A DNA stretch of 64,000 nucleotides from Escherichia phage UPEC01. This document shows, one piece after another, positions 3,396-59,785 of the stretch (its first letter is position 1; each line of letters begins with the position of its first letter). The DNA lies in the sequence record MW233709, one strand, 5' to 3'. Under the pieces are notes generated by a model. It did not search any database. It had not been told where the DNA came from and saw only the letters and a program-made list of their open reading frames with translations. Both the position numbers and the translations under genes were made by a program.

Positions 3396-3686
3396 ATGAA
3401 ATCATCTTTTCGCTTTAATGGTCAGGAACTGGTAGTTGAGAATGTTATCCCGGCTTCAGAAGAGTTTGACAGCGCGGTGGGTAATGAACTGCGGCGTGTG
3501 TTTGGCGAAGATAAGAAGTTTGACCTTCGCCCTGTTGAAAACTTTGTAAATTCTGAACAAACAGAAAATATTTTTAATGGTGTAGTAACTGGGCAACTTG
3601 AATCTGAAGCACCAATTGCAATTACAGTCTTTGCTAAGAAAGAAGTTGTAATGACTGCAGCAGGTTTCATTTCATTCCGCAAATAA
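3396..3686 (+). CDS. hypothetical small protein (alt-adjacent, possibly alt.-1-like)
   Basis: 96-aa ORF from internal ATG of the track ORF 3363..3686; candidate early promoter upstream and terminator hairpin directly downstream. Confidence 0.55.
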   Translation: MKSSFRFNGQELVVENVIPASEEFDSAVGNELRRVFGEDKKFDLRPVENFVNSEQTENIFNGVVTGQLESEAPIAITVFAKKEVVMTAAGFISFRK

Positions 3687-3715: not shown

Positions 3716-4673
3716 ATAATATACGTTGACTTCCACCAGAGACTGTTCTCCCAGAACCAGTGAACGTATTGTACAGACTTGTTAATCCAGATTGAGCACC
3801 AGACAAGCGGCTCAATCTGGCAACTTCTGAGTTCAAGTTGTTATCTGAACTAATACCAGATACACCTTTAATAACCTTATCTTCCAACCATTCCAATGCC
3901 GCAGCTCTTCCCACCGCACCAGTTGACATAACGCGATAAGCAAAAGTCACATCAAATGTAGCTATCTGATTATCCCCTTCATAACTCAATTCAGGTGCAG
4001 ATACACTTACAGGAACACAACCAGTTAACATAACAACCGTATGCGGTAACCCATTACGCGAATGAAGGTTAACCTGAATATCAGCTTCAACGTCTTCAGG
4101 CAAGGCCCTTAGCTGGGTAACTGGGTCCTGTACAGAGTTGACCCAATCGTTAAATGCTCTAAAGTTCCCTGCCTCTGAATCCATTCTAAAGCTCAATACC
4201 AACGGAGAATATTCTCTCCCGGTTATCTTGATATTTGGTGCATTATGGTTAAGGTCCATTTCGTAGTTCAATGTGTTATCCGGAAGCTTAACAGAGTGAA
4301 CTAATAGACCAGCCGTTGGATAAGCCATATTAAAGAAATCAAGCAGGTAAGTACCAACCTCAAATTCCCCTAGTAACGATTGCACAACACGGTTACTCAT
4401 TGCCCCGATAAGATATTTGCTTATCCCTGATTTGCGAATAAGCTTTTGTGTCCCGGCAGTAACAAGAGTTGTTATCCCCTGAGTTAAGTCACCTTGTGTT
4501 AATCCGAACCAATCTGAGTTAACAGGAAGGTTACTGAATAATGCGCCACCGAACTGGTCCAGAAGATTCTGAGATTTGGAGGAAGGCGTGGTCGCGAAGA
4601 CCACACTAAAAAGGTTATTCCTCTGCAAGTCGATATTAATCGCTTGTGTTTGAAATTCTTGTAAAGTAAACAT
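3714..4673 (-). CDS. 54: baseplate tail-tube initiator gp54
   Basis: 319 aa; position and size match T4 gp54 (320 aa recalled), downstream of 48 in the 29-48-54 block. Confidence 0.8.
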   Translation of the reverse strand: MFTLQEFQTQAINIDLQRNNLFSVVFATTPSSKSQNLLDQFGGALFSNLPVNSDWFGLTQGDLTQGITTLVTAGTQKLIRKSGISKYLIGAMSNRVVQSLLGEFEVGTYLLDFFNMAYPTAGLLVHSVKLPDNTLNYEMDLNHNAPNIKITGREYSPLVLSFRMDSEAGNFRAFNDWVNSVQDPVTQLRALPEDVEADIQVNLHSRNGLPHTVVMLTGCVPVSVSAPELSYEGDNQIATFDVTFAYRVMSTGAVGRAAALEWLEDKVIKGVSGISSDNNLNSEVARLSRLSGAQSGLTSLYNTFTGSGRTVSGGSQRIL

Positions 4674-10581: not shown

Positions 10582-10971
10582 ATGAATATAAACAAAATGT
10601 ATAGCGATGTGTCTCCCGACTTATCTACAAGTTGGGATAAAGACGTTGCTAAAGTAACCGGTGCAAGGTCTGTTAAGAACAGTCTTCTGGGAATAATCAC
10701 CACAAGAAAAGGGTCAAGGCCTTTTATGCCTGAATTTGGATGTGATATAAGTAATCAGCTTTTTGAGAATATCACTCCATTAATCACAGATACCATTAAA
10801 CGCAACATCGTCTCCGCTGTGCGGAACTTTGAACCAAGGATAAGCAATCTACAGGTTGCAGTTGTCCCTATGTATGATGATAACTCCATTATCGTAACGG
10901 TTCAGTTCAGCATTGTTGATGACCCTGATACCCTCGAACAAATCAGGATTCAGCTAAGTCAAAACGGTTAA
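10582..10971 (+). CDS. 25: baseplate wedge subunit gp25 (gpW/lysozyme-like fold)
   Basis: 129 aa (T4 132 aa); TAAATG coupling with gene 26; conserved position between 26 and uvsY. Confidence 0.88.
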   Translation: MNINKMYSDVSPDLSTSWDKDVAKVTGARSVKNSLLGIITTRKGSRPFMPEFGCDISNQLFENITPLITDTIKRNIVSAVRNFEPRISNLQVAVVPMYDDNSIIVTVQFSIVDDPDTLEQIRIQLSQNG

Positions 10972-11007
10972 TGCTTTAATTTTATGGCTGTATAATGGTT
11001 CTAGACC
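10972..11007 (+). promoter_or_regulatory. MotA-dependent middle promoter upstream of uvsY (ori(uvsY)-equivalent position) with GGTTCTAGACC box
   Basis: MotA box TGCTTTA 10972-10978, 12-nt spacer, TATAAT 10991-10996, then GGTTCTAGACC 10997-11007. Confidence 0.7.
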
Positions 11008-11024
11008 CTTACATTGGATACATT

Positions 11025-16710: not shown

Positions 16711-16970
16711 CATTCGCAGAAGAACTACGCCAAATGGCAAAAGAGTCACAAGATAAAGTTGCAAATGACTTTATTGCTATATTCCGCAAAGTGGCTATTG
16801 CCGCCGCTGAAAATGGCAAAGATTTTGTTAATATGGCAGTTTCTGAAAAAGAATATGAAGAAGGCAATCGTGGAAAAATATCTGATTTTCTGCGGGCAGA
16901 AAAATTTACATCATTTACCTGGAATTTTGATTGGCAAGAAAACAAGCCAACATTGTATGTAAAATTCTGA
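16707..16970 (+). CDS. hypothetical protein
   Basis: 87-aa ORF overlapping previous stop (ATGA); sits in the T4 24.2/24.3 position. Confidence 0.5.
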   Translation: MTFAEELRQMAKESQDKVANDFIAIFRKVAIAAAENGKDFVNMAVSEKEYEEGNRGKISDFLRAEKFTSFTWNFDWQENKPTLYVKF

Positions 16971-16974
16971 CCTT

Positions 16975-17013
16975 TTTGCTTCAAATAAAATTGTGGTATA
17001 ATGGTTCTAGACC
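16975..17013 (+). promoter_or_regulatory. MotA-box middle promoter upstream of rnlB with GGTTCTAGACC box
   Basis: TTTGCTTCA, 13-nt spacer, TATAAT 16997-17002, GGTTCTAGACC 17003-17013. Confidence 0.6.
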
Positions 17014-17100
17014 TTCCGATACGATTAATTTCTTTTCAGAGAAAGAAAGTATAGAGAGTCTAATTTATAATGATATTTATAACATCAAAAGTGAGAGATT

Positions 17101-18108: not shown

Positions 18109-18139
18109 AAAAAAGGGCCGCAAGGCCCTTATTCTTTTT
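18105..18139. terminator. bidirectional terminator between rnlB and the gene 24 paralog (GGGCC-GCAA-GGCCC)
   Basis: A8 run, GNRA-loop hairpin, T-run. Confidence 0.8.
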
Positions 18140-19412
18140 CCAGTGGCGGAAGTTTAACGCCAAGATAAGAACTCAATTGGCTTTGGTTAGCCATCTTATC
18201 CATATCAGCCCCATCAATAAGGCGGGCTTCTTTATCGTCTTTAGCAACGGTATAGGGGTTCGCTGTCAATGCATAACGAGCTAACAGTGCAACCGTAGGC
18301 TGTAAGCTTTCAGGGTCAACAATAACCTTGAATTCTCCGACCGATGTATCCCCCTCATCATCAACTTCGCTAAGTCCTTCCGTATAAGGCGCATAATACA
18401 AAGATGCGACCGTCTGACCTTCACCCATATCAGCATTTACACCGACAATAACATAATCACATGGACTATTCATATCTGCGTAAAGAGGCAAACCGTTCTT
18501 CAGAACACCATAGGCTAATTCATCCTGGTCTTCCTTTTTCTCAACCCAGCCAGAAGCGGCTAAAATAGCTGCACAACGGGAAGAAGCAACCGCATATGTA
18601 CCAGCAAACGAAGTCTGACGTTGAACTGCAGAATTCATTTCACACATATAATAATACAGGGTTCGTGCGCGGTCCTGTGCGTTATCATATTTCGGGTCAG
18701 TGAGATTCAACACACCTTTTTCAGAAACACCTTGTACCTTGAAGCGAGAACTAACAGTAATAAGGGATTGCAATACATCCTTATTAATTTCCTCTGCCAT
18801 TTGAATGCCGAGAATATTATCGATGAAGTCTGTTGCATCGAAACCGTTTGCTTCCAGGTCCTGAGCAAGCTCGACAGTTAAAGAAGTTTTCAACTTTCTG
18901 GATTTAACTTCAGTCTGCCATTTATCGATACGGAAACCAGCTTCAGCAATTTCAGGATGCCCCTTTTCAAATTTATCAGTGAAAGCAGCATCTGACATCA
19001 TTCTTATATGTCCAGCAGCAATGGCTTCAGAAATAACTTCACCTAAATCAGTTTCGAGTGTCCCGGCAAAGGGGGAAGCTTCCAGAACTTTGAATACAAC
19101 GCTTTCAAACTGAAACATATCGCCGACTGCATAAGCTTCATCTTTGTTCGTAAATTCTGGAATATTCTTACGCTCGAACATACCAATCTGACCTGCAAAT
19201 GTTGCTCCACCGAGATATGTCATTTTATCATCTGGGTTCAGAACACGAACACCATACAACGCTGCAACAGGCTGTGTAGTTTTCTGTTCGGCAACGAGTG
19301 CTTTAAAAATTCGTTTATTCGTGGCCTGGGTATAAGAAAGCAAATTAGGACGGGCGACCTGGTTGGCCGCCGTTAATGTTGATTCGTGAATTAGTGCGTT
19401 AATCTTTTGCAT
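18129..19412 (-). CDS. head vertex protein gp24 paralog (divergent second copy)
   Basis: 427 aa; aligns end-to-end with the adjacent gp24 (shared blocks TNQPVAALYG, KSRKLKT.LTVELAQD.EANGF, NKDVLQSLITVS, YAPYTEGL, ANPYTVAKDDKEARLIDG) at an estimated 55-60% identity. Confidence 0.85.
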   Translation of the reverse strand: MQKINALIHESTLTAANQVARPNLLSYTQATNKRIFKALVAEQKTTQPVAALYGVRVLNPDDKMTYLGGATFAGQIGMFERKNIPEFTNKDEAYAVGDMFQFESVVFKVLEASPFAGTLETDLGEVISEAIAAGHIRMMSDAAFTDKFEKGHPEIAEAGFRIDKWQTEVKSRKLKTSLTVELAQDLEANGFDATDFIDNILGIQMAEEINKDVLQSLITVSSRFKVQGVSEKGVLNLTDPKYDNAQDRARTLYYYMCEMNSAVQRQTSFAGTYAVASSRCAAILAASGWVEKKEDQDELAYGVLKNGLPLYADMNSPCDYVIVGVNADMGEGQTVASLYYAPYTEGLSEVDDEGDTSVGEFKVIVDPESLQPTVALLARYALTANPYTVAKDDKEARLIDGADMDKMANQSQLSSYLGVKLPPLEKE

Positions 19413-20693
19413 TTACGCCTCATAAATGATTGGCGGAAGTTTAACACCGAGCAGATAAGACATATTGCTCTGACCGGCCATTAAATCCATATTGGTTGCA
19501 TCGATAATACGAGCTTCTTTATCGTCTTTAGCAACGGTGTAAGGGTTAGCTGAAAGTGCATAACGAACCATCAAAGAGATAGCTGGTTGCAAACTGTCAG
19601 GGTCCACAATGACTTTAAACGCGCCTACATGCTCTTCATCATCTAAGTCCAGGCCTTCGGTATAAGGAGCATAGAAGATTGAGCCTACGACTTCGTTTCC
19701 GCCGTAATTTTCTTTAACGCCAACGGTTACATAATCCAATGGACTGTTAACATCACAGAATACAGGAAGACCATTAATCAAATAACCGTACGCTGTTTCA
19801 GGAAGCCACTGTTCGTCTTCAGGTTTATGCTTCAGCCAGCCAGAACCGGCCAACATAGCAGCAACACGGCTGGAGGCAACAACAAAGGTACCGGAATAAG
19901 ATGTAGTTTTCTGAATTTCGGAGTTCATTTCGCAAACCAGTTCGTACAGTTTACGTGCGCCTTCTGGAGCTGCATCATATGTTAAATCGATGGTGCCATT
20001 GTCAGAAACACCAGTTACTTTATAACGCTTGGAAACGGTAATAAGAGACTGAAGAACATCTTTGTTAATTTCATCTGCCATAATAGTAGCAAGCAGGTCT
20101 TCCAGGAAAGCAGGAGCATTAAAGCCATTTGCTTCCATATCCTGAGCAAGCTCAACAGTTAATGCAGTTTTCAATTTACGGGATTTAACAGGAGCATTCC
20201 ATTTATTAACCTGGAATACAGCGTTACTAATTTCAACATCACCGGCTTCAAATTTCTCGGTGTGCGCTGCATCAGGAACCAAACGAATGGTTAATGCAAT
20301 AAGACCTTCTTGCAGAACATCTGATAATACAGTTTCGGTAGTCGATGCAAATGGATTATCAACCAGAGCTTTGTAAACGATATTTTGGTATTTTACATAT
20401 TCGCCTTTAGCAACAGGCTGAGTGGCTGTAGTTAATTCTGGAATAGTTGTACGGTCTTTAGAACCGACTTCGCCTCCATAAGTAGCGCCCGTCTGGAAAC
20501 TGAATTCATTATCAGGAGTAAGATATTTAACACCATACAGTGCAGCAACAGGCTGGTTAGTACGTTGTTCAGCGATGATATCGCGGTAAATCAATTTAGT
20601 CGTAGCGCGGGTCAAAGCAACAAGATTCGGGCGGCCCAATGAGTTGCTGGTAGTAATAGTTGACTCGCGCAGTAATTTGTTAATCTTTGCCAT
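19413..20693 (-). CDS. 24: head vertex protein gp24
   Basis: 426 aa; MAKINKLLRESTITTSNSLGRPNLVALTRATTKLIY...EQRTNQPVAALYGVKYL closely matches T4 gp24 as recalled; late promoter 27 nt upstream. Confidence 0.9.
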   Translation of the reverse strand: MAKINKLLRESTITTSNSLGRPNLVALTRATTKLIYRDIIAEQRTNQPVAALYGVKYLTPDNEFSFQTGATYGGEVGSKDRTTIPELTTATQPVAKGEYVKYQNIVYKALVDNPFASTTETVLSDVLQEGLIALTIRLVPDAAHTEKFEAGDVEISNAVFQVNKWNAPVKSRKLKTALTVELAQDMEANGFNAPAFLEDLLATIMADEINKDVLQSLITVSKRYKVTGVSDNGTIDLTYDAAPEGARKLYELVCEMNSEIQKTTSYSGTFVVASSRVAAMLAGSGWLKHKPEDEQWLPETAYGYLINGLPVFCDVNSPLDYVTVGVKENYGGNEVVGSIFYAPYTEGLDLDDEEHVGAFKVIVDPDSLQPAISLMVRYALSANPYTVAKDDKEARIIDATNMDLMAGQSNMSYLLGVKLPPIIYEA

Positions 20694-20719: not shown

Positions 20720-20727
20720 TATTTATA
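20720..20727 (-). promoter_or_regulatory. late promoter TATAAATA (gene 24)
   Basis: Octamer on minus strand 27 nt upstream of gp24 ATG. Confidence 0.7.
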
Positions 20728-20733
20728 AAAGTT

Positions 20734-20780
20734 GTTTACAACCAGATTAAGATAAGACATAATGATTCCATACTGAGTTA
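20734..20780 (+). promoter_or_regulatory. early promoter cassette G (GTTTAC, 18 nt, CATAAT, then conserved leader GATTCCATACTGAGTTA)
   Basis: Drives ORF 20805; the leader sequence recurs at 58316 and 59361. Confidence 0.55.
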
Positions 20781-20804
20781 ACAAACAAAACCTGGAGTTT
20801 AAAA

Positions 20805-21086
20805 ATGAACAAAGCAACTTTCCTTCTGAACACCTTTAAAAAATTGGAAATTGAAGTTATTGCATTGGTCAACAAATACCCAAATGGCGTTAATGGTAAT
20901 GCTCTGAACAAACTAGTTAAAAAATATGAAAACTTAGCATATGACACTGATTTCTGGTGGAATGGTAATTATTCTACTCACACTAAAGATAAAAATGGTA
21001 ACTGGTTGAAACTTCAAGAAAACAATGTTAACTTCAGAGACCTCATCAAGCGCCGGGTAGAAGTTCATTTAAATGGTATGGTATGA
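20805..21086 (+). CDS. hypothetical small protein, early gene embedded between genes 24 and 23 on the opposite strand
   Basis: 93-aa ORF with its own early promoter (GTTTAC, 18 nt, CATAAT), GGAG RBS, and a bidirectional terminator downstream. Confidence 0.55.
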   Translation: MNKATFLLNTFKKLEIEVIALVNKYPNGVNGNALNKLVKKYENLAYDTDFWWNGNYSTHTKDKNGNWLKLQENNVNFRDLIKRRVEVHLNGMV

Positions 21087-21090
21087 AAAC

Positions 21091-21120
21091 AAGAAAGGGA
21101 CCTCAAGGGTCCCTTTTTAT
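21091..21120. terminator. bidirectional terminator between ORF 20805 (plus) and gene 23 (minus)
   Basis: AAGAAAGGGACCTCAAGGGTCCCTTTTT: 6-bp stem flanked by A-run and T-run. Confidence 0.8.
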
Positions 21121-21136
21121 TTAACTTAATCTAAGA

Positions 21137-22696
21137 TTAAATTCCTTTAACATATACGCGGCGGAAGTAACCGTTCAAGCCGAGGCTGTTAACGATGTCC
21201 GGCATGCCGTTTTGAATACGCTTGGTCGGAGCCTGAGCTGTCGGGTCAGCGAACGGGTTAATACCGATACCGTAACGGGTTTTGAAGCCCATAACCGGCT
21301 GGAAGTTTTTCGGGTCAGAGCCACGCAGCGGAGTCAGTGCAACATATGGTGCATAGTAGATACCAGCATCCATTTCGTTAGCGCCTTTGTAACCGATGGT
21401 GAAGTAGTCTGCACGAGCATACTGGTCGATATAGACACGGTATTTGCCACCCAGAACACCAGCGAACACAGCTTTAGTGGTGTCAACGTTGAAACCTTTA
21501 CCCAGACCCTGAGCAGCATAAGATACGGAGGTATCAACTGCAGCCAGTACGTTAACTACGTTACGGGAAGCGATGATGAAGTTACCTGCACCACGGCCAG
21601 TCTGACGAGCGATTTCAGCAGCTTCTTTGTCAATCTGGAACAGTAAAGCTTTGAAGCTTTCACCAGCCCAACGAGCACCACGGATATCAATCGGGTCCTG
21701 GAAGTCAAACACACCAGCTTTAGCGCCAACGGTGTTGGTCATACCAGATTTACCAACCTGAGCGGAGTAGTTAATCCAATCGATAACTTCGCGGTTGATT
21801 TCCAGCATAATTTCGGTAGCCAGAATACCACTCAATTCAGCATCAGCATCCATACCGTGGACAGCGCGGAGGTCCTGCGCCAGTTCGATAGAGTAGCTTG
21901 CTTTAAGCTGACGGGATTTAGCTTCGATAACTTGTTTGTCGATGCGGAAGCCCATTTCGTTCCACGGGTTATCAGTAGAACCGTTAAAGCCTTCCTGCAA
22001 TTCGGCGATAGAGGTAGCCATACCTTCAGCGATTTCTGCCAGCTTACCAGCTTCGAGCAGTTTGGTAACTTCAGCGTCAAGTTTAGCAGCATCAGTAGCG
22101 GCGGCATCGACGGTTACAGCTTCAACAGCCTGGTAGTGCGCAGAACCGGTTGCTTCGAAGAAGTGTGAATAAATTTTACCAACGGTAAGAACTTTGCTTG
22201 CAGCCAGAGCTTCGAAAGCTTCAGCAGCGCCCTGACCAGAGAACATAGCGTTCGGAGCATACATCGGGTGGAAAGCTTCTTTAGCACCAGCAGCTACAGG
22301 GTCTTTACCGTAAACTGCACGCAGGGCAAATACCTGGCCAGTCGGGTTGTTCAGAGGCTGTACGCCACAAATATCAAACGCAATCAGATGCGGGATAGCA
22401 CGACGAACCATACCCATAACTGCCGGCCCAATCTGAGTTACTGCGCCAGAGGTCTGGCCAGCAGCGATATTGGTAGCATCATAACCATGGTCACCACCGA
22501 TTTCAGCTTCGGTCAGGAAAGAACCAAATGCTTCGGAGATTTTTTCGTCACGGTATTCAGGAGCGGTCAGAATATCTTGTTCCTGGTTTTCAAAGATTTT
22601 AGCGATGATAGCTTGTTTAGAAGCACCAACGATTTCCGGAAGAGCTTCGTTTTCCAGCAGAGCGGACCATTTTTGAACTAATGCATTCTTTTTCAT
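21137..22696 (-). CDS. 23: major capsid protein gp23
   Basis: 519 aa; very close to T4 gp23 throughout (e.g. SKQAIIAKIFENQE, IAAGQTSGAVTQIGPAVMGMVRRAIP, C-terminal FRRVYVKGI). Confidence 0.97.
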   Translation of the reverse strand: MKKNALVQKWSALLENEALPEIVGASKQAIIAKIFENQEQDILTAPEYRDEKISEAFGSFLTEAEIGGDHGYDATNIAAGQTSGAVTQIGPAVMGMVRRAIPHLIAFDICGVQPLNNPTGQVFALRAVYGKDPVAAGAKEAFHPMYAPNAMFSGQGAAEAFEALAASKVLTVGKIYSHFFEATGSAHYQAVEAVTVDAAATDAAKLDAEVTKLLEAGKLAEIAEGMATSIAELQEGFNGSTDNPWNEMGFRIDKQVIEAKSRQLKASYSIELAQDLRAVHGMDADAELSGILATEIMLEINREVIDWINYSAQVGKSGMTNTVGAKAGVFDFQDPIDIRGARWAGESFKALLFQIDKEAAEIARQTGRGAGNFIIASRNVVNVLAAVDTSVSYAAQGLGKGFNVDTTKAVFAGVLGGKYRVYIDQYARADYFTIGYKGANEMDAGIYYAPYVALTPLRGSDPKNFQPVMGFKTRYGIGINPFADPTAQAPTKRIQNGMPDIVNSLGLNGYFRRVYVKGI

Positions 22697-27075: not shown

Positions 27076-27146
27076 CTAGGTAATATGATTCATCATCTCA
27101 AGATAATGGCTTCCTAGAATCAACCACAGGAGCCCGTAGAACCGAT

Positions 27147-27184
27147 TATGCTTTTATTTATAACACTGTATAATGGTTCTACGG
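27147..27184. promoter_or_regulatory. composite element: plus-strand MotA-box middle-promoter copy (GGTTCTACGG variant) overlapping a minus-strand TATAAATA
   Basis: Plus: TGCTTTT, 13-nt spacer, TATAAT 27169-27174, GGTTCTACGG; minus: TATAAATA at 27155-27162. The plus-strand promoter points antisense into gene 18. Confidence 0.5.
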
Positions 27185-27220
27185 TTTTACTGCTAATTAA
27201 TTCTTTCTAAGCGATGATAA

Positions 27221-53439: not shown

Positions 53440-53478
53440 TGTACAAATGAGTGTAGGTGCAGTATTATGTTCCTACAC
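53439..53478 (+). promoter_or_regulatory. early promoter / stem-loop cassette H (GTGTAC, 18 nt, TATTAT; -10 enclosed by inverted repeat GTGTAGG/CCTACAC)
   Basis: Immediately after 57B stop; same architecture as cassettes at 54422, 54755, 55065 and 58809 but a different stem sequence. Confidence 0.55.
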
Positions 53479-53499
53479 CAATGAACGAACGGAGTTAAA

Positions 53500-53832
53500 A
53501 TGAACATCAAAACTTACAACGAGTTTTTAGCCGAATCCGCCATCAATGAGACCAAATCAATTGATGATAGTGAAGGCTCTCTGAAATTTGGTTTATCCAA
53601 AAATGCAGATGGTGTTTTCTTTCAGATTGGTAATGAACGTTTTCAAACGTCCAAATATTCCAAAGCTGCAGTTGAAGCTGTCCTGAAATCTGGTGGCAAG
53701 TGGAAAGGCAAAGAAGGTACTAAAGAAATTGGTATCGCTGTTGACGGCGGTATGGCTTATTTTAAAATTGGCGATGAACAATTTATTATGTCTGCTCGCG
53801 GACGTAAAGAACTGGCAAAACTTTATAAATAA
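53500..53832 (+). CDS. internal-protein-like gene 1 (capsid-targeting leader MNIKTYNEFLAE)
   Basis: 110 aa; N-terminus matches the T4 IPI/II/III targeting leader MKTYQEFIAE with an LxE cleavage-type motif; first gene after promoter H. Confidence 0.6.
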   Translation: MNIKTYNEFLAESAINETKSIDDSEGSLKFGLSKNADGVFFQIGNERFQTSKYSKAAVEAVLKSGGKWKGKEGTKEIGIAVDGGMAYFKIGDEQFIMSARGRKELAKLYK

Positions 53833-54121: not shown

Positions 54122-54421
54122 ATGCAAACTTTTCATGAATTTTTGGTAGAAAACAATTACCTGGCAGAAGCAAAAACCTGGCCTCTGGGTCTTCAGAAGA
54201 AAAACACCTACAAATGGGTTGACTTCAAAGGTAAAGGCGACGCTGAAGACTTTGACCAGCTGCGTAAAAATGGTTATACCTTCCTTGACTCTAACTATAA
54301 CAAAATTACCTCTTTTAGTCAGAAGTCAAGCATTGCCTTCATTGAAACTGGTAAGAACTCTCCTAAAGATATCACTGACGACTTCACCGCTTATGGTGTA
54401 ATTCGTGGTTCAAAAATGTAA
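54122..54421 (+). CDS. internal-protein-like gene 3 (leader MQTFHEFLVE)
   Basis: 99 aa; leader-like N-terminus; 8-nt spacing from previous gene. Confidence 0.6.
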   Translation: MQTFHEFLVENNYLAEAKTWPLGLQKKNTYKWVDFKGKGDAEDFDQLRKNGYTFLDSNYNKITSFSQKSSIAFIETGKNSPKDITDDFTAYGVIRGSKM

Positions 54422-54458
54422 TGTACACGATGGGATAGTTGCAGTATAATTATCCCAT
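54422..54458 (+). promoter_or_regulatory. early promoter / stem-loop cassette A (TGTACA, 17 nt, TATAAT; inverted repeat ATGGGATA/TATCCCAT)
   Basis: -10 hexamer lies between the two 8-bp arms; followed by CAACTACTGGAG (RBS) and ATG 54477. Confidence 0.55.
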
Positions 54459-54476
54459 CAACTACTGGAGCTACTA

Positions 54477-54755
54477 ATGAAAACTTATCAAGAATTTATT
54501 AACGAATCAATTAGTCACCCGGATATGCTGGAAGACCTGAAAGGACATCTGATGGTTAAGGCCAAACCGGTTGATGGTGGCGCATTTGAGTTGTTTCTTG
54601 TTAAAGGCGAAAACGGTCCTGATAACAAGAAAGTTTCAGCAATGATGTTGACTAAAGGTTACAAAGTCAGTTCTTCCTGGAATGCTCCATTCACTTACGC
54701 GGTAAGCCCTCGTGAACTGAAAAAAGTTAAAGCTGGACAATATACAAAAATTTAG
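54477..54755 (+). CDS. internal-protein-like gene 4 (leader MKTYQEFINE)
   Basis: 92 aa; leader-like N-terminus; own early promoter/stem-loop cassette upstream. Confidence 0.6.
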   Translation: MKTYQEFINESISHPDMLEDLKGHLMVKAKPVDGGAFELFLVKGENGPDNKKVSAMMLTKGYKVSSSWNAPFTYAVSPRELKKVKAGQYTKI

Positions 54756-54793
54756 TGTACGTGATGGGATAACTGTAGTATGATTATCTCATC
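54755..54793 (+). promoter_or_regulatory. early promoter / stem-loop cassette B (GTGTAC, TATGAT; ATGGGATA/TATCTCAT)
   Basis: Near-identical to cassette A with one arm mismatch; precedes ATG 54810. Confidence 0.5.
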
Positions 54794-54809
54794 AACTACT
54801 GGAGACCAC

Positions 54810-55064: not shown

Positions 55065-55101
55065 GTGTACTTTTAAATGGGATAGTGTATGATTATCCCA
55101 T
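55065..55101 (+). promoter_or_regulatory. early promoter / stem-loop cassette C (GTGTAC, 17 nt, TATGAT; ATGGGATA/TATCCCAT)
   Basis: Same cassette as A; precedes ATG 55122. Confidence 0.55.
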
Positions 55102-56566: not shown

Positions 56567-56640
56567 GGCCCTGTAGCTCAATTGGTTAGAGCATCCGGCT
56601 CATAACTGGCAGGTTTCCGGTTCAAGTCCGGATGGGGCCA
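56567..56640 (+). tRNA. tRNA with CAU anticodon (Met or lysidine-type Ile)
   Basis: Cloverleaf by hand: acceptor GGCCCTG/TGGGGCC, D-arm GCTC-AATTGGTTA-GAGC, anticodon loop CTCATAA (one U-C mismatch in stem), T-arm TCCGG-TTCAAGT-CCGGA; T4 itself carries a CAU tRNA-Ile. Confidence 0.8.
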
Positions 56641-56642
56641 CC

Positions 56643-56719
56643 CGGGGTGTAGCTCAATTGTATAGAGCAACGGTCTTCTAAACCGTAGGTTGTGGGTTAG
56701 AATCCCACCACCCCGACCA
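56643..56719 (+). tRNA. tRNA-Arg (anticodon UCU), CCA encoded
   Basis: Acceptor CGGGGTG/CACCCCG, D-arm GCTC...GAGC, anticodon stem ACGGT/ACCGT with loop CTTCTAA, T-arm GTGGG-TTAGAAT-CCCAC, then A-CCA; T4 encodes tRNA-Arg(UCU). Confidence 0.85.
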
Positions 56720-58231: not shown

Positions 58232-58255
58232 CAGCCCGCATTGCGGGCTTTTTTA
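58232..58255 (+). terminator. rho-independent terminator after ORF 57677
   Basis: GCCCGC-att-GCGGGC followed by T6. Confidence 0.8.
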
Positions 58256-58291: not shown

Positions 58292-58340
58292 GTGTACATC
58301 CAAATTGTCTGGGTGCATAATGATTCCATACTGAGTTACA
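58292..58340 (+). promoter_or_regulatory. early promoter cassette E (GTGTAC, 18 nt, CATAAT, then leader GATTCCATACTGAGTTACA)
   Basis: Upstream of ATG 58373; leader shared with cassettes at 20758 and 59361. Confidence 0.5.
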
Positions 58341-58372
58341 CACTGAATCAAACAAAACTTTGGAGAAATAAA

Positions 58373-58798
58373 ATGAACTTTCTGACCCTGACCTCTGCAT
58401 TCTCTGTTACCCGCATCACTAACAAAATGGTTGCTGACGAAGTATGTGAAATCTGCATTCGTGAAGATGCACTTATCCATCTGACTTCAACCCAGATTGT
58501 TGCCATTGCCAAGTCCCTTAATTCTGAACTGAAGGTAAACACCAAACAGTCAAAAGAATCTATCATTGAATTAATCCAAGCTGAAATGATTGAATTCCCA
58601 ATTGAAGAAGTTAAAGAAGAAAAAATCCAGTCCAAATCTGGTAACGCTCGTGACATTTGCTTCCAGGCATTTGCAGAAATTGATATGAATGATAATGCAG
58701 CTCGTCGCGCTCTGATTGATGTTCTGGTTACCACCCATGATATCAAAAAGACTGTTGTTCAGTCATATGCATCCAACTTCCGCAAAGCTCAAAAATAA
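58373..58798 (+). CDS. hypothetical protein, paralog A (shared C-terminal domain with 58882..59325)
   Basis: 141 aa; C-terminal ...NDNAARRALIDVLVTTHDIKKTVVQSYASNFRK; own early promoter (GTGTAC, 18 nt, CATAAT). Confidence 0.55.
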   Translation: MNFLTLTSAFSVTRITNKMVADEVCEICIREDALIHLTSTQIVAIAKSLNSELKVNTKQSKESIIELIQAEMIEFPIEEVKEEKIQSKSGNARDICFQAFAEIDMNDNAARRALIDVLVTTHDIKKTVVQSYASNFRKAQK

Positions 58799-58808
58799 TT
58801 GAGAAAAG

Positions 58809-58858
58809 TGTTTTACTTCCAGATGGGATAGTGTATAATTATCCCATACTGAGTTACC
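58809..58858 (+). promoter_or_regulatory. early promoter / stem-loop cassette D (GTTTTAC, TATAAT; ATGGGATA/TATCCCAT) fused to the ACTGAGTTACC leader
   Basis: Hybrid of the stem-loop cassette (A-C) and the CATACTGAGTTAC leader family; precedes ATG 58882. Confidence 0.5.
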
Positions 58859-58881
58859 AAATAAACAAACGGGAAAATAAA

Positions 58882-59325
58882 ATGAAAACTTCAAAACTGG
58901 TTAAGTATGTTAAACTGGCATTAAACAACTCTTCTGAAGCTGAAGCACAATCCGCAGCACGTATGTTCTTCAAACGTCTGACAGCTGAAGGTATTTCATT
59001 TAACCCGGCAGTATTTGGTATCACTCGTGGCGAAGCTGCTAAACTGGCAACTCTGGCAGGTAAAATTTTTAAAGGTCTGAATGATGGACAGGTTAAACCA
59101 GAAGTTAAACCTACTCCTAAAGCTGAACCAAAAGCTGAACGTAAGGCACCTAAACGCTCCGGTATGAGCAACAAAGATTTATGCTATGATATGTTCAAAA
59201 CTGTTAATATGTCTAATGGTGCTGCTCGCAGAGCTGTTATTGATATGATTGTGCGTGAGTTTGGATTCAACAAAGCATCAGTTCAGTCTTATGCTTCCAA
59301 CTTCCGCAAAGAATTTGAAATTTAA
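58882..59325 (+). CDS. hypothetical protein, paralog B (shared C-terminal domain with 58373..58798)
   Basis: 147 aa; C-terminal ...SNGAARRAVIDMIVREFGFNKASVQSYASNFRK; own promoter/stem-loop cassette. Confidence 0.55.
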   Translation: MKTSKLVKYVKLALNNSSEAEAQSAARMFFKRLTAEGISFNPAVFGITRGEAAKLATLAGKIFKGLNDGQVKPEVKPTPKAEPKAERKAPKRSGMSNKDLCYDMFKTVNMSNGAARRAVIDMIVREFGFNKASVQSYASNFRKEFEI

Positions 59326-59407
59326 TTAAAAAGGGGGTATACAAGCCCCCTGCTTTAAGGCATAATGATTCCATACTGAGTTACACAATAAAACACTGGA
59401 GAATAAA

Positions 59408-59713
59408 ATGAAATTCATCATCAACCTGGCGCTTGTTGACTTTGATAAAACTGGTAATTTCGCATCTGCTGAAAATATGATTCGTAACACCAAGTTCAAA
59501 GTGCAAGTCCAACAGGCGGTAGCAAAAGAGTTCTTTACTGATAAATTAACTAACGTTGTTAATCACCTGAATGTGCAAGTTAAATTCACTCGTGAAGCGG
59601 AAACTACTGTTGCATTTGATTTTGACTGCCAATACCATGATGAATATGTTCGCCGCATCCTGGATATTGTGTCTGATGAACTTTATTATGGTGTGCAGGA
59701 AAACAAAATCTAA
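59408..59713 (+). CDS. hypothetical protein
   Basis: 101-aa ORF with GGAG RBS; preceded by the conserved leader CATAATGATTCCATACTGAGTTACA. Confidence 0.5.
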   Translation: MKFIINLALVDFDKTGNFASAENMIRNTKFKVQVQQAVAKEFFTDKLTNVVNHLNVQVKFTREAETTVAFDFDCQYHDEYVRRILDIVSDELYYGVQENKI

Positions 59714-59717
59714 ATTA

Positions 59718-59749
59718 GTGCTTTAATGGGAACATGATAGTATGTTCCC
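59718..59749 (+). promoter_or_regulatory. MotA-box middle promoter with -10 enclosed by inverted repeat GGGAACAT/ATGTTCCC
   Basis: TGCTTTA 59720-59726, 11-nt spacer, TAGTAT; 8-bp perfect inverted repeat with 6-nt loop; precedes ATG 59786. Confidence 0.45.
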
Positions 59750-59785
59750 TGGATAATAAAACTTTAACCATCTGAAGGAAATACC

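Follow-up and report, generated by a model that had tools for sequence, protein, structure and literature searches.

Promoter-early stem-loop (PeSL) cassettes have been described in T4-type phages (Arbiol et al. 2010, PMC2839356; Comeau et al. 2014, PMC4122927), with exchange signatures recorded for RB49/phi1, T4/PST, and KVP40/nt-1 and with crossovers of RB49 mini-circles located between the -10 element and the ATG (PMC2839356, PMC4122927). The "uber" UP/-35/TGn/-10 early promoters of T4 represent another closely related class (Hinton 2010, PMC2988021; Nolan 2006, PMC1524935), and a late promoter consensus is also available (Nolan 2006, PMC1524935). For the RegB/S1 system of T4, the strong-site consensus GG*AGRAYARAA (Durand 2006) is quoted in PMC3014915.

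In this study, we analyzed a repeated block in the window, by which we mean the whole 64,000-nucleotide stretch of Escherichia phage UPEC01 DNA (record MW233709). The block resembles PeSL cassettes in its succession of terminator or stem-loop (variable in position or absent at some copies), AT-rich stretch, sigma-70-like early promoter, Shine-Dalgarno (SD) sequence, and ATG, in being repeated many times, mostly between small accessory ORFs of hyperplastic regions, and in that indels and replacements between close relatives map to the cassettes, with crossovers between the -10 and the ATG. With the T4 early promoters it shares a GTTTAC/TGTACA-type -35, a 17-nt spacer, a TATAAT-like -10, A-rich upstream sequence, C-rich positions -3 to -1, extra consensus beyond the hexamers, and a location 5' of early genes or novel ORFs (PMC2988021, PMC1524935).

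Repeated early promoter block in the window

Scanning of the window revealed three exact copies of a 23-nt block, CATAATGATTCCATACTGAGTTA, on the + strand (20758-20780, 58316-58338, and 59361-59383) and a fourth, TATAATTATCCCATACTGAGTTA, on the same strand at 58834-58856 with 3 mismatches to CATAATGATTCCATACTGAGTTA. This agrees with the sequence-only reading, in which the block was said to precede ORFs 20805, 58373, and 59408 and, in a hybrid form, ORF 58882. No match to the block was obtained in 100 dinucleotide shuffles of the window (0 expected by chance), and an antisense copy was present neither in the window nor in VR7. Looser motif matches at 4509, 22428, 48524, 48447, and 55880 lay inside coding sequence without promoter context and were rejected as chance occurrences. 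The cassettes built around the four copies, and the stem-loops beside them, are as follows.

20735..20807, + strand: cassette copy 1, with -35 TTTACA (20735-20740), 17-nt spacer, -10 CATAAT (20758-20763), discriminator GATTCC, predicted +1 A20770, 35-nt leader, GGAG (20794-20797), and ATG 20805
58233..58249, + strand: terminator hairpin AGCCCGC-ATT-GCGGGCT plus T run, a PeSL-type stem-loop 5' of cassette copy 2
58293..58375, + strand: cassette copy 2, with -35 TGTACA, -10 CATAAT at 58316, predicted +1 A58328, 45-nt leader, GGAG, and ATG 58373
58812..58884, + strand: cassette copy 3 (hybrid), with -35 TTTACT, -10 TATAAT between the arms of the ATGGGATA/TATCCCAT inverted repeat (58823-58847), then CCATACTGAGTTAC, predicted +1 A58846, GGGA SD, and ATG 58882
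59332..59351, unstranded: stem-loop AGGGGG-TATACAAG-CCCCCT, enclosing the -35 of cassette copy 4
59338..59410, + strand: cassette copy 4, with -35 TATACA, -10 CATAAT at 59361, predicted +1 A59373, 35-nt leader, GGAGAATAAAA at 59398-59408, and ATG 59408

An A-rich leader, a GGAG or GGGA SD, and the ATG (20805, 58373, 58882, or 59408) followed 3' of each block copy, and the distance from the predicted start, placed at the usual 7 nt from the -10, to the + strand ATG was 35 to 45 nt in all four. Alignment of the four upstream regions revealed that identity spans the -10 hexamer to ~+11/+12, while the -35 hexamers (TTTACA, TGTACA, TTTACT, and TATACA) and the spacers of 16 to 17 nt differ, and that similarity returns in the AAAC..GGAG..AAAATG part of the leaders. 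In a consensus scan, all four copies scored as promoters with a -35, a 16- to 17-nt spacer, and a -10, each followed by an SD and an ATG, which upholds the proposal of a sigma-70-type early promoter joined to a 5' leader. The same combination of -35/-10 promoter, SD, and ORF start codon was found in the four window copies and in 11 copies of VR7. T4-like -35 hexamers (TTTACA and TGTACA) and an A-rich upstream region occur at the cassette promoters, the -10 is CATAAT instead of TATAAT in most block copies, and the 12-nt start segment ATACTGAGTTAC is invariant among block copies. Placement of the stem-loop is uneven: at 58233 it precedes the promoter, at 59332 it encloses the -35, at 58823 it brackets the -10, and at 20758 there is none; several VR7 copies carry an upstream stem-loop (GGGTCC plus T run plus AAAAAGTAG TGTACA).

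Distribution among T4-type phages

As judged from its sequence, the window is a VR7-like T4-type coliphage of the genus Gaprivervirus, and the region around the copy 1 locus has 94 to 97% identity to VR7/SP18-like phages and ~83% identity to JS98. With a 39-nt query, the block was retrieved from only ~34 records, all Gaprivervirus, at 10 to 15 places each, together with weaker matches in Morganella phage MP1. The four copies counted before in the window alone are therefore an underestimate for these genomes. In the complete VR7 genome, 11 copies were found, all on the early strand, upstream of srd, ORF045c, nrdC.8, ORF098c, ORF145c, ORF146c, ORF147c, ORF190c, 30.8, ORF277c (just before motA), and ORF287c. 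In the window, three tandem copies occupy a mosaic region at 58.3 to 59.4 kb and one lies in the core capsid cluster. T4, RB69-like, and JS98-like genomes lack the start segment ATACTGAGTTAC, two Dhakavirus records with isolated matches excepted. When IMG/VR was scanned for the exact pattern ATYCCATACTGAGTTA, 73 stretches were returned, with promoter context only in VR20, VR25, VR26, and MP1; the remaining stretches were discarded as chance or unrelated coding matches. A literature search, covering sources other than the VR7 genome paper, retrieved no paper describing the VR7 early promoters.

The MP1 copies, GGGCATAATGATCCCATACTGAGTTAACAAACAAACGGAG and GGATATAATTATCCCATACTGAGTTAACAAATAAAAC, sit at annotated promoters, and block identity between Gaprivervirus and the distant MP1 is about 90 to 100%. 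The whole MP1 cassette (L016, 568-650 and 1078-1165; L052) is ~90% identical, including the upstream AAAAAGT(G/A)GTGTACAACT part, and precedes the ORF 58882 orthologue and other small genes in this phage of a different genus. Such a cassette in MP1 suggests either a very old constraint or the transfer of a gene with its promoter between lineages.

Two start-segment flavors and a hybrid promoter

Early-strand -35/-10 matches in VR7 and in the window fell into two families according to the sequence 3' of the -10. Flavor A, ...YCCATCAACTAC(TGATGAGGA / TGGAG), has the core CCATCAACTAC, with ~17 copies in VR7 and copies at 54422 and 55066 in the window, whereas flavor B is the start segment of the block, CCATACTGAGTTAC; set against each other, the start segments read ATACTGAGTTAC (block) and ATCAACTAC. 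The flavor A core is also multicopy in JS98-like and RB69-like phages (18 places in JS98, about 600 records), while the JS98-type form of the core, TACTATAGACCTATCAA, was not found in the window. The copy at 58834 combines the two flavors: its upstream half, with ATGGGATA/TATCCCAT bracketing the -10, matches the flavor A promoters at 54422 and 55066, its downstream half is flavor B, and the junction falls at CCAT. The hybrid form claimed before ORF 58882 is accordingly real, with a flavor A upstream half and the downstream half of the block. This type of chimera is kept in VR7, VR20, VR25, VR26, and SP18 and also exists in MP1.

Other repeated promoters were observed in the window. A second early-promoter class, at 53440-53500, 54411-54470, 54745-54804, and 55068-55101, has an inverted repeat around the -10 (GATGGGATA..TATCCCATC or GTGTAGG..CCTACAC) and the start segment CCATCAACTAC, and it precedes an array of small genes whose products begin with MKTYQEFIxE, the T4 internal-protein capsid-targeting signature. 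In addition, three MotA-box middle-type promoters (TGCTTyA, 12 to 13 nt, TATAAT) are located on the + strand within the late-gene region, at ~10962-11010, ~16970-17030, and ~27140-27190, the last of which overlaps an opposite-strand late promoter, TATAAATA. All three have the -10 plus start segment GTATAATGGTTCTAGACC in common, so middle promoters, too, come in repeated -10/start families.

Exchange of genes and promoters among relatives

The region at 57.6 to 60.4 kb is mosaic among Gapriverviruses, and its genes and cassettes were mapped in nine genomes, with every expected cassette present.

Window, SP18, and phage 212: promoter with ORF58373-type gene, hybrid promoter with ORF58882-type gene, promoter with ORF59408-type gene
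TH44, VR20, VR25, and TH54: the same order, plus an extra VR7ORF146c-type gene and cassette between the first two
VR7: extra gene and cassette present; ORF58882-type gene cut to 68 aa; ORF59408-type gene, e.6, and the next gene deleted
RZ: ORF59408-type gene missing; cassette drives e.6 directly

At the VR7ORF146c-type indel, the window hybrid has the sequence of the left-hand TH44 cassette up to and including CCATACTGAGTTACCAAATAAA and that of the right-hand one from there on, which places a crossover inside that stretch, and the crossover lies within CCATACTGAGTTA[AC]CAAATAAA, inside the block. Relative to genomes with the VR7ORF146c-type gene, hybrid copy 3 is a recombinant junction. The RZ deletion joins the cassette CTGGAGAATAAAA to the similar CTGGATAATAAAA upstream of e.6, with the crossover in CTGGA(G/T)AATAAAA, the cassette SD. 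Moreover, the promoter half ..tcagtatggagtctatgTATAATGATTCC.. precedes the MDIKLY gene in VR7 and VR20 but the MFTTAE gene in VR26, and the orthologous frd.2 promoter, 3' of the gene 32 terminator, is flavor A in VR7 and flavor B in VR26 between near-identical flanks, with the VR26 patch matching the leader of another flavor B copy. The movement of the module proposed earlier is borne out by these crossovers inside the cassette, by the gene swap behind a promoter half, and by the start-segment swap at frd.2. Taken together, the comparisons show that promoter and mRNA start can be exchanged as separate modules and that every lineage retains homogenized flavors of its own.

Further features of this part of the genome were recorded. 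At ~59718-59750 of the window, a middle-type promoter (GTGCTTTA, 12 nt, TAGTAT) with the hairpin GGGAACAT/ATGTTCCC around its -10 is found upstream of e.6, and the CTGGATAATAAAA sequence 3' of it is a degraded cassette SD, the crossover point of the RZ deletion. A comparison of VR7 64477-64683 (L006) with window 58882-59325 revealed a larger VR7 deletion in the cassette-rich region. Two tRNA genes, tRNA-Met (CAT) at 56567-56642 and tRNA-Arg (TCT) at 56643-56719, lie head to tail; the tRNA content at this spot varies, being Met, Asn, and Arg in SP18 and Met only in VR7.

Copy in the capsid gene cluster

Cassette copy 1 is oriented opposite to late genes 20 to 24 and is surrounded by the following features.

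18129-19412, - strand: gene 24(2)
19413-20693, - strand: gene 24(1), start codon at 20693
20720..20727, - strand: T4-type late promoter TATAAATA for gene 24(1), overlapping the UP-element region of the divergent early promoter
20805..21086, + strand: ORF 20805, 93 aa, phrog_6003 (unknown-function family)
21092..21118, unstranded: bidirectional intrinsic terminator of ORF 20805 (+) and gene 23 (-), scoring on both strands
21137-22696, - strand: gene 23

The matching order in VR7 is portal gene 20, 67, 68, 21, 22, 23, VR7ORF190c on the opposite strand, and two tandem gene 24 copies. The tandem gene 24 duplicate (repeat family D1; about 71% nucleotide identity over 198 nt) occurs as in VR7 and JS98/IME08.

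In three genera, homologues of ORF 20805 are found on the opposite strand in the same slot, flanked by genes 24 and 23, with identities of at least 90% in Gaprivervirus (VR7ORF190c), about 62% in Dhakavirus (JS98 ORF173c), and about 37% in Mosigvirus (RB69ORF188c), whereas T4 has only segD in this slot and IME08 has segD after the ORF. The ORF had been regarded as an early island within a late module, a description that, if taken to mean a recent insertion, does not fit homologues holding the slot in three genera; likewise, genes 23 and 24, whose direct adjacency in relatives had been suggested as a check, are never adjacent in VR7, IME08, PhAPEC2, or T4. Beside gene 24, all four of these lineages carry TATTTATAAA(A)G..(G/A)TTTACA, that is, the gene 24 late promoter TATAAATA overlapping the upstream region and -35 of the opposite early promoter. 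Sequence 3' of the slot -35 differs among lineages, being TACTATAGAC(C/T)TATCAA, a multicopy family of its own, in Dhakavirus and Mosigvirus, TATAATCATATACAAAC in T4, and the block in Gaprivervirus. Since the ORF and the late promoter/-35 are common across genera while the -10/leader is lineage specific, the gene and the promoter position are old, and it is the -10/leader half that has changed, in agreement with the repeated family of each lineage. The copy at 20758 appears to be an ancient early promoter that diverges from the adjoining late promoter of gene 24.

The terminator at 21092-21118 does score on both strands as claimed, but it is not private to ORF 20805, being the gene 23 terminator, which Nolan et al. 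found conserved in every T4-like genome of their comparison (PMC1524935). It is a member of the GGGACC..GGTCCC repeat family D3. Near-identical terminator hairpins, AAAGGGACC-loop-GGTCCCTTT, were also noted at 3682, 16337, 21088, and 40797, and the terminators are themselves repeated modules.

Leaders and sequence constraint

RNA folding revealed that the four leaders fold no better than shuffled sequences (z = +0.8 to +2.0), and a gathering-threshold Rfam scan of the whole window returned only two tRNAs and no family at the leaders. Most of the leaders partly resemble T4 RegB/S1 sites in presenting a GGAG SD in an unpaired A-rich context, but the fit is full only at 59398, where GGAGAATAAAA is an exact 11/11 fit to GGAGRAYARAA and the sole full fit among the four window copies. 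Two other sites, 20794 and the SD in the leader of ORF 58373, each agree at 9 of 11 positions when counted from the sequence, and the 58882 leader has GGGA in place of GGAG. VR7 encodes regB.

Among orthologous copies, variable columns amounted to 20/85 (23.5%) in the spacer, 3/90 (3.3%) in the discriminator plus start segment, and 0/60 (0%) in the hexamers, although these copies were selected via the block, which biases the count toward block conservation. Considering this low variability and the presence of every expected cassette in the nine-genome region, the start segment seems to be under constraint as strong as that on the hexamers. Promoter function by itself offers no obvious reason for invariance to about +11/+12; the constraint could reflect promoter escape at very strong promoters, a factor binding site, or homogenization by frequent recombination.

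Proteins encoded downstream

The three ORFs behind the tandem cassettes are as follows.

58373..58798, + strand: ORF 58373, 141 aa, phrog_9997, equivalent to VR7ORF147c
58882..59325, + strand: ORF 58882, 147 aa, phrog_18416, equivalent to SP18_gp147; 52% identical to MP1 gp120
59408..59713, + strand: ORF 59408, 101 aa, phrog_7474; absent from phage RZ

No Pfam domain was detected in any of the four window proteins, and PHROGs returned unknown-function families only. ORFs 58373 and 58882, however, share a C-terminal domain (42% identity over 73 aa, E = 2e-17) and cross-match phrog_9997, phrog_18416, and phrog_17275, so the statement that the encoded proteins are unrelated fails for this pair; it holds for the remaining downstream genes, which are mutually unrelated (ORF 20805, ORF 59408, srd, 30.8, nrdC.8, and others). 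VR7ORF277c has the same C-terminal domain and the same unusually long leader (ACACTGAATCA..CTTTGGAG) as ORF 58373, which indicates that part of the spread came from joint duplication of gene and promoter. The ORF 58882 family occurs in Gaprivervirus, MP1, and Erwinia RF1, and the C-terminal domain alone occurs in Acinetobacter T4-likes. The MP1 gp120 gene also carries the cassette, and MP1 homologues of VR7_gp147 and SP18_gp147 have been detected in virions by mass spectrometry.

Interpretation and alternative explanations

We consider it quite probable that the block is the core of a lineage-specific T4-type family of early promoters and mRNA starts that has been spread and exchanged by PeSL-type shuffling. 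Its core would consist of the -10 hexamer, the discriminator, and the first ~11 to 12 transcribed bases, followed by an unstructured A-rich leader to the GGAG SD. By analogy with T4, host sigma-70 RNA polymerase would fire these promoters right after infection, the open leader may allow efficient translation, and RegB with ribosomal protein S1 would cut the GGAG SD and shut off the early message; the module is expected to drive strong expression at the immediate-early stage, after which the message would be inactivated with the help of RegB, as happens in T4. The block is one of two interchangeable start-segment flavors, the other being CCATCAACTAC..., common to JS98-like and RB69-like phages. 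Copies may have arisen in three ways: through retention of ancestral promoter sites, through copying of a promoter along with its gene (the ORF 58373/ORF 58882/VR7ORF277c family), and through short-patch homologous recombination or gene conversion between promoters. As direct repeats flanking small genes, the copies would let recombination between them delete, insert, or swap genes.

Several alternatives were weighed against this explanation. Independent ancestral promoters, kept alike without any movement by purifying selection to one optimum, would account for the many copies at places where T4 has early genes (srd, just upstream of motA, 30.8, and the 23-24 slot) and would accord with the extended consensus of T4 early promoters past the hexamers; we nevertheless regard this as very doubtful, since the frd.2 change combines two indels with substitutions in one patch, which corresponds to the leader sequence of a different copy, chimeric copies are joined at CCAT, indel crossovers fall inside the block, and the coexistence of two flavors in one genome argues against a single optimum. 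It is hardly credible that ORF 20805, its promoter, and its terminator entered recently as a mobile island or represent a variant form of a homing-endonuclease cassette: segD fills the slot in T4 and lies beside the ORF in IME08, and the ORF is on the strand opposite to its late-gene neighbors, but homologues of 37 to 62% identity stand in the slot across three genera, the late promoter/-35 is kept even in T4, the window holds neither terminal repeats nor an endonuclease or transposase gene for such an element, and the terminator is the conserved one of gene 23. There is practically no chance that the leader repeats form a structured RNA with a cis-regulatory role, such as a riboswitch, a thermosensor, or an sRNA gene, or that they code for a leader peptide. 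The segment is indeed repeated and conserved and is presumably transcribed, yet Rfam matches were zero, the leaders are less stable than shuffles, and the frame of the block relative to the ATG varies between copies without a common start codon. In-frame GTG-started ORFs at 58292 and 58831, considered as a leader peptide or N-terminal extension, were dismissed as artifacts because the frame is inconsistent.

The start segment (AUACUGAGUUAC, or its DNA) may instead be the recognition site of a lineage-specific factor that defines an immediate-early regulon, for instance through early shut-off, message stability, or activation by an injected protein. On this view, promoter strength alone would be insufficient for the conservation. 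We judge this unlikely. In its favor, the start segment is held about as tightly as the hexamers while the spacer drifts, the block stays about 90 to 100% identical between Gaprivervirus and the distant MP1, the ORF 58882 family is found in both block-bearing lineages, with MP1 homologues in virions, and how T4 shuts off its early promoters is, according to the literature, still not understood. However, the genes behind the block have no common theme, the block has neither dyad symmetry nor RNA structure, Erwinia RF1 and the Acinetobacter phages have the protein domain without the block, and co-occurrence may equal joint inheritance or transfer of a gene with its promoter. The ORF 58882 family could be an injected factor reading the block or, equally, a case of such joint inheritance. 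A more specific version, in which the start segment is a cis-acting address tag, read by a factor specific to Gaprivervirus- and MP1-type phages (candidate: the virion-associated ORF 58373/58882 family), and marks a subset of immediate-early genes for a separate step of control such as activation, shut-off, or decay, appears distinctly improbable.

Comparison with known systems

The phenomenon is real but largely ordinary, being already known as PeSL or as the T4 early-promoter class, and no new mechanism is demonstrated by the analysis of the block. What is gained is an extension of the PeSL picture to another T4-like genus with cases resolved at sequence level, namely, crossovers inside a 24-nt shared stretch, a chimeric promoter joined at about +1, and a start-segment switch between sibling phages. 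In the annotation of VR7/SP18-like therapeutic phages, the block may serve to mark immediate-early transcription units reliably. Moreover, the invariance of ~12 transcribed bases could bear on promoter escape or on the unexplained early shut-off of T4.

A close parallel to the block is the TACTATAGACCTATCAA(C/A)... family of Dhakavirus and Mosigvirus, represented in VR7 by flavor A (CCATCAACTAC). This family is likewise a multicopy -10 plus start segment, holds the orthologous promoter of the 23-24 slot in Dhakavirus and Mosigvirus, and is interchangeable with the block at one promoter site (frd.2), but it differs in the sequence after CCAT/CTAT, in a shorter leader running straight into the SD, and in a much wider distribution (about 600 records). 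Compared with the T4 early promoters, the block has mostly CATAAT as its -10 and carries the invariant 12-nt ATACTGAGTTAC. Compared with the PeSL cassettes described so far, it belongs to a different lineage (Gaprivervirus and MP1), its stem-loop is variable in position or absent, and one of its copies lies in the capsid cluster beside a divergent late promoter; conservation is highest in its -10 plus start segment, rather than in the stem-loop or the -35.
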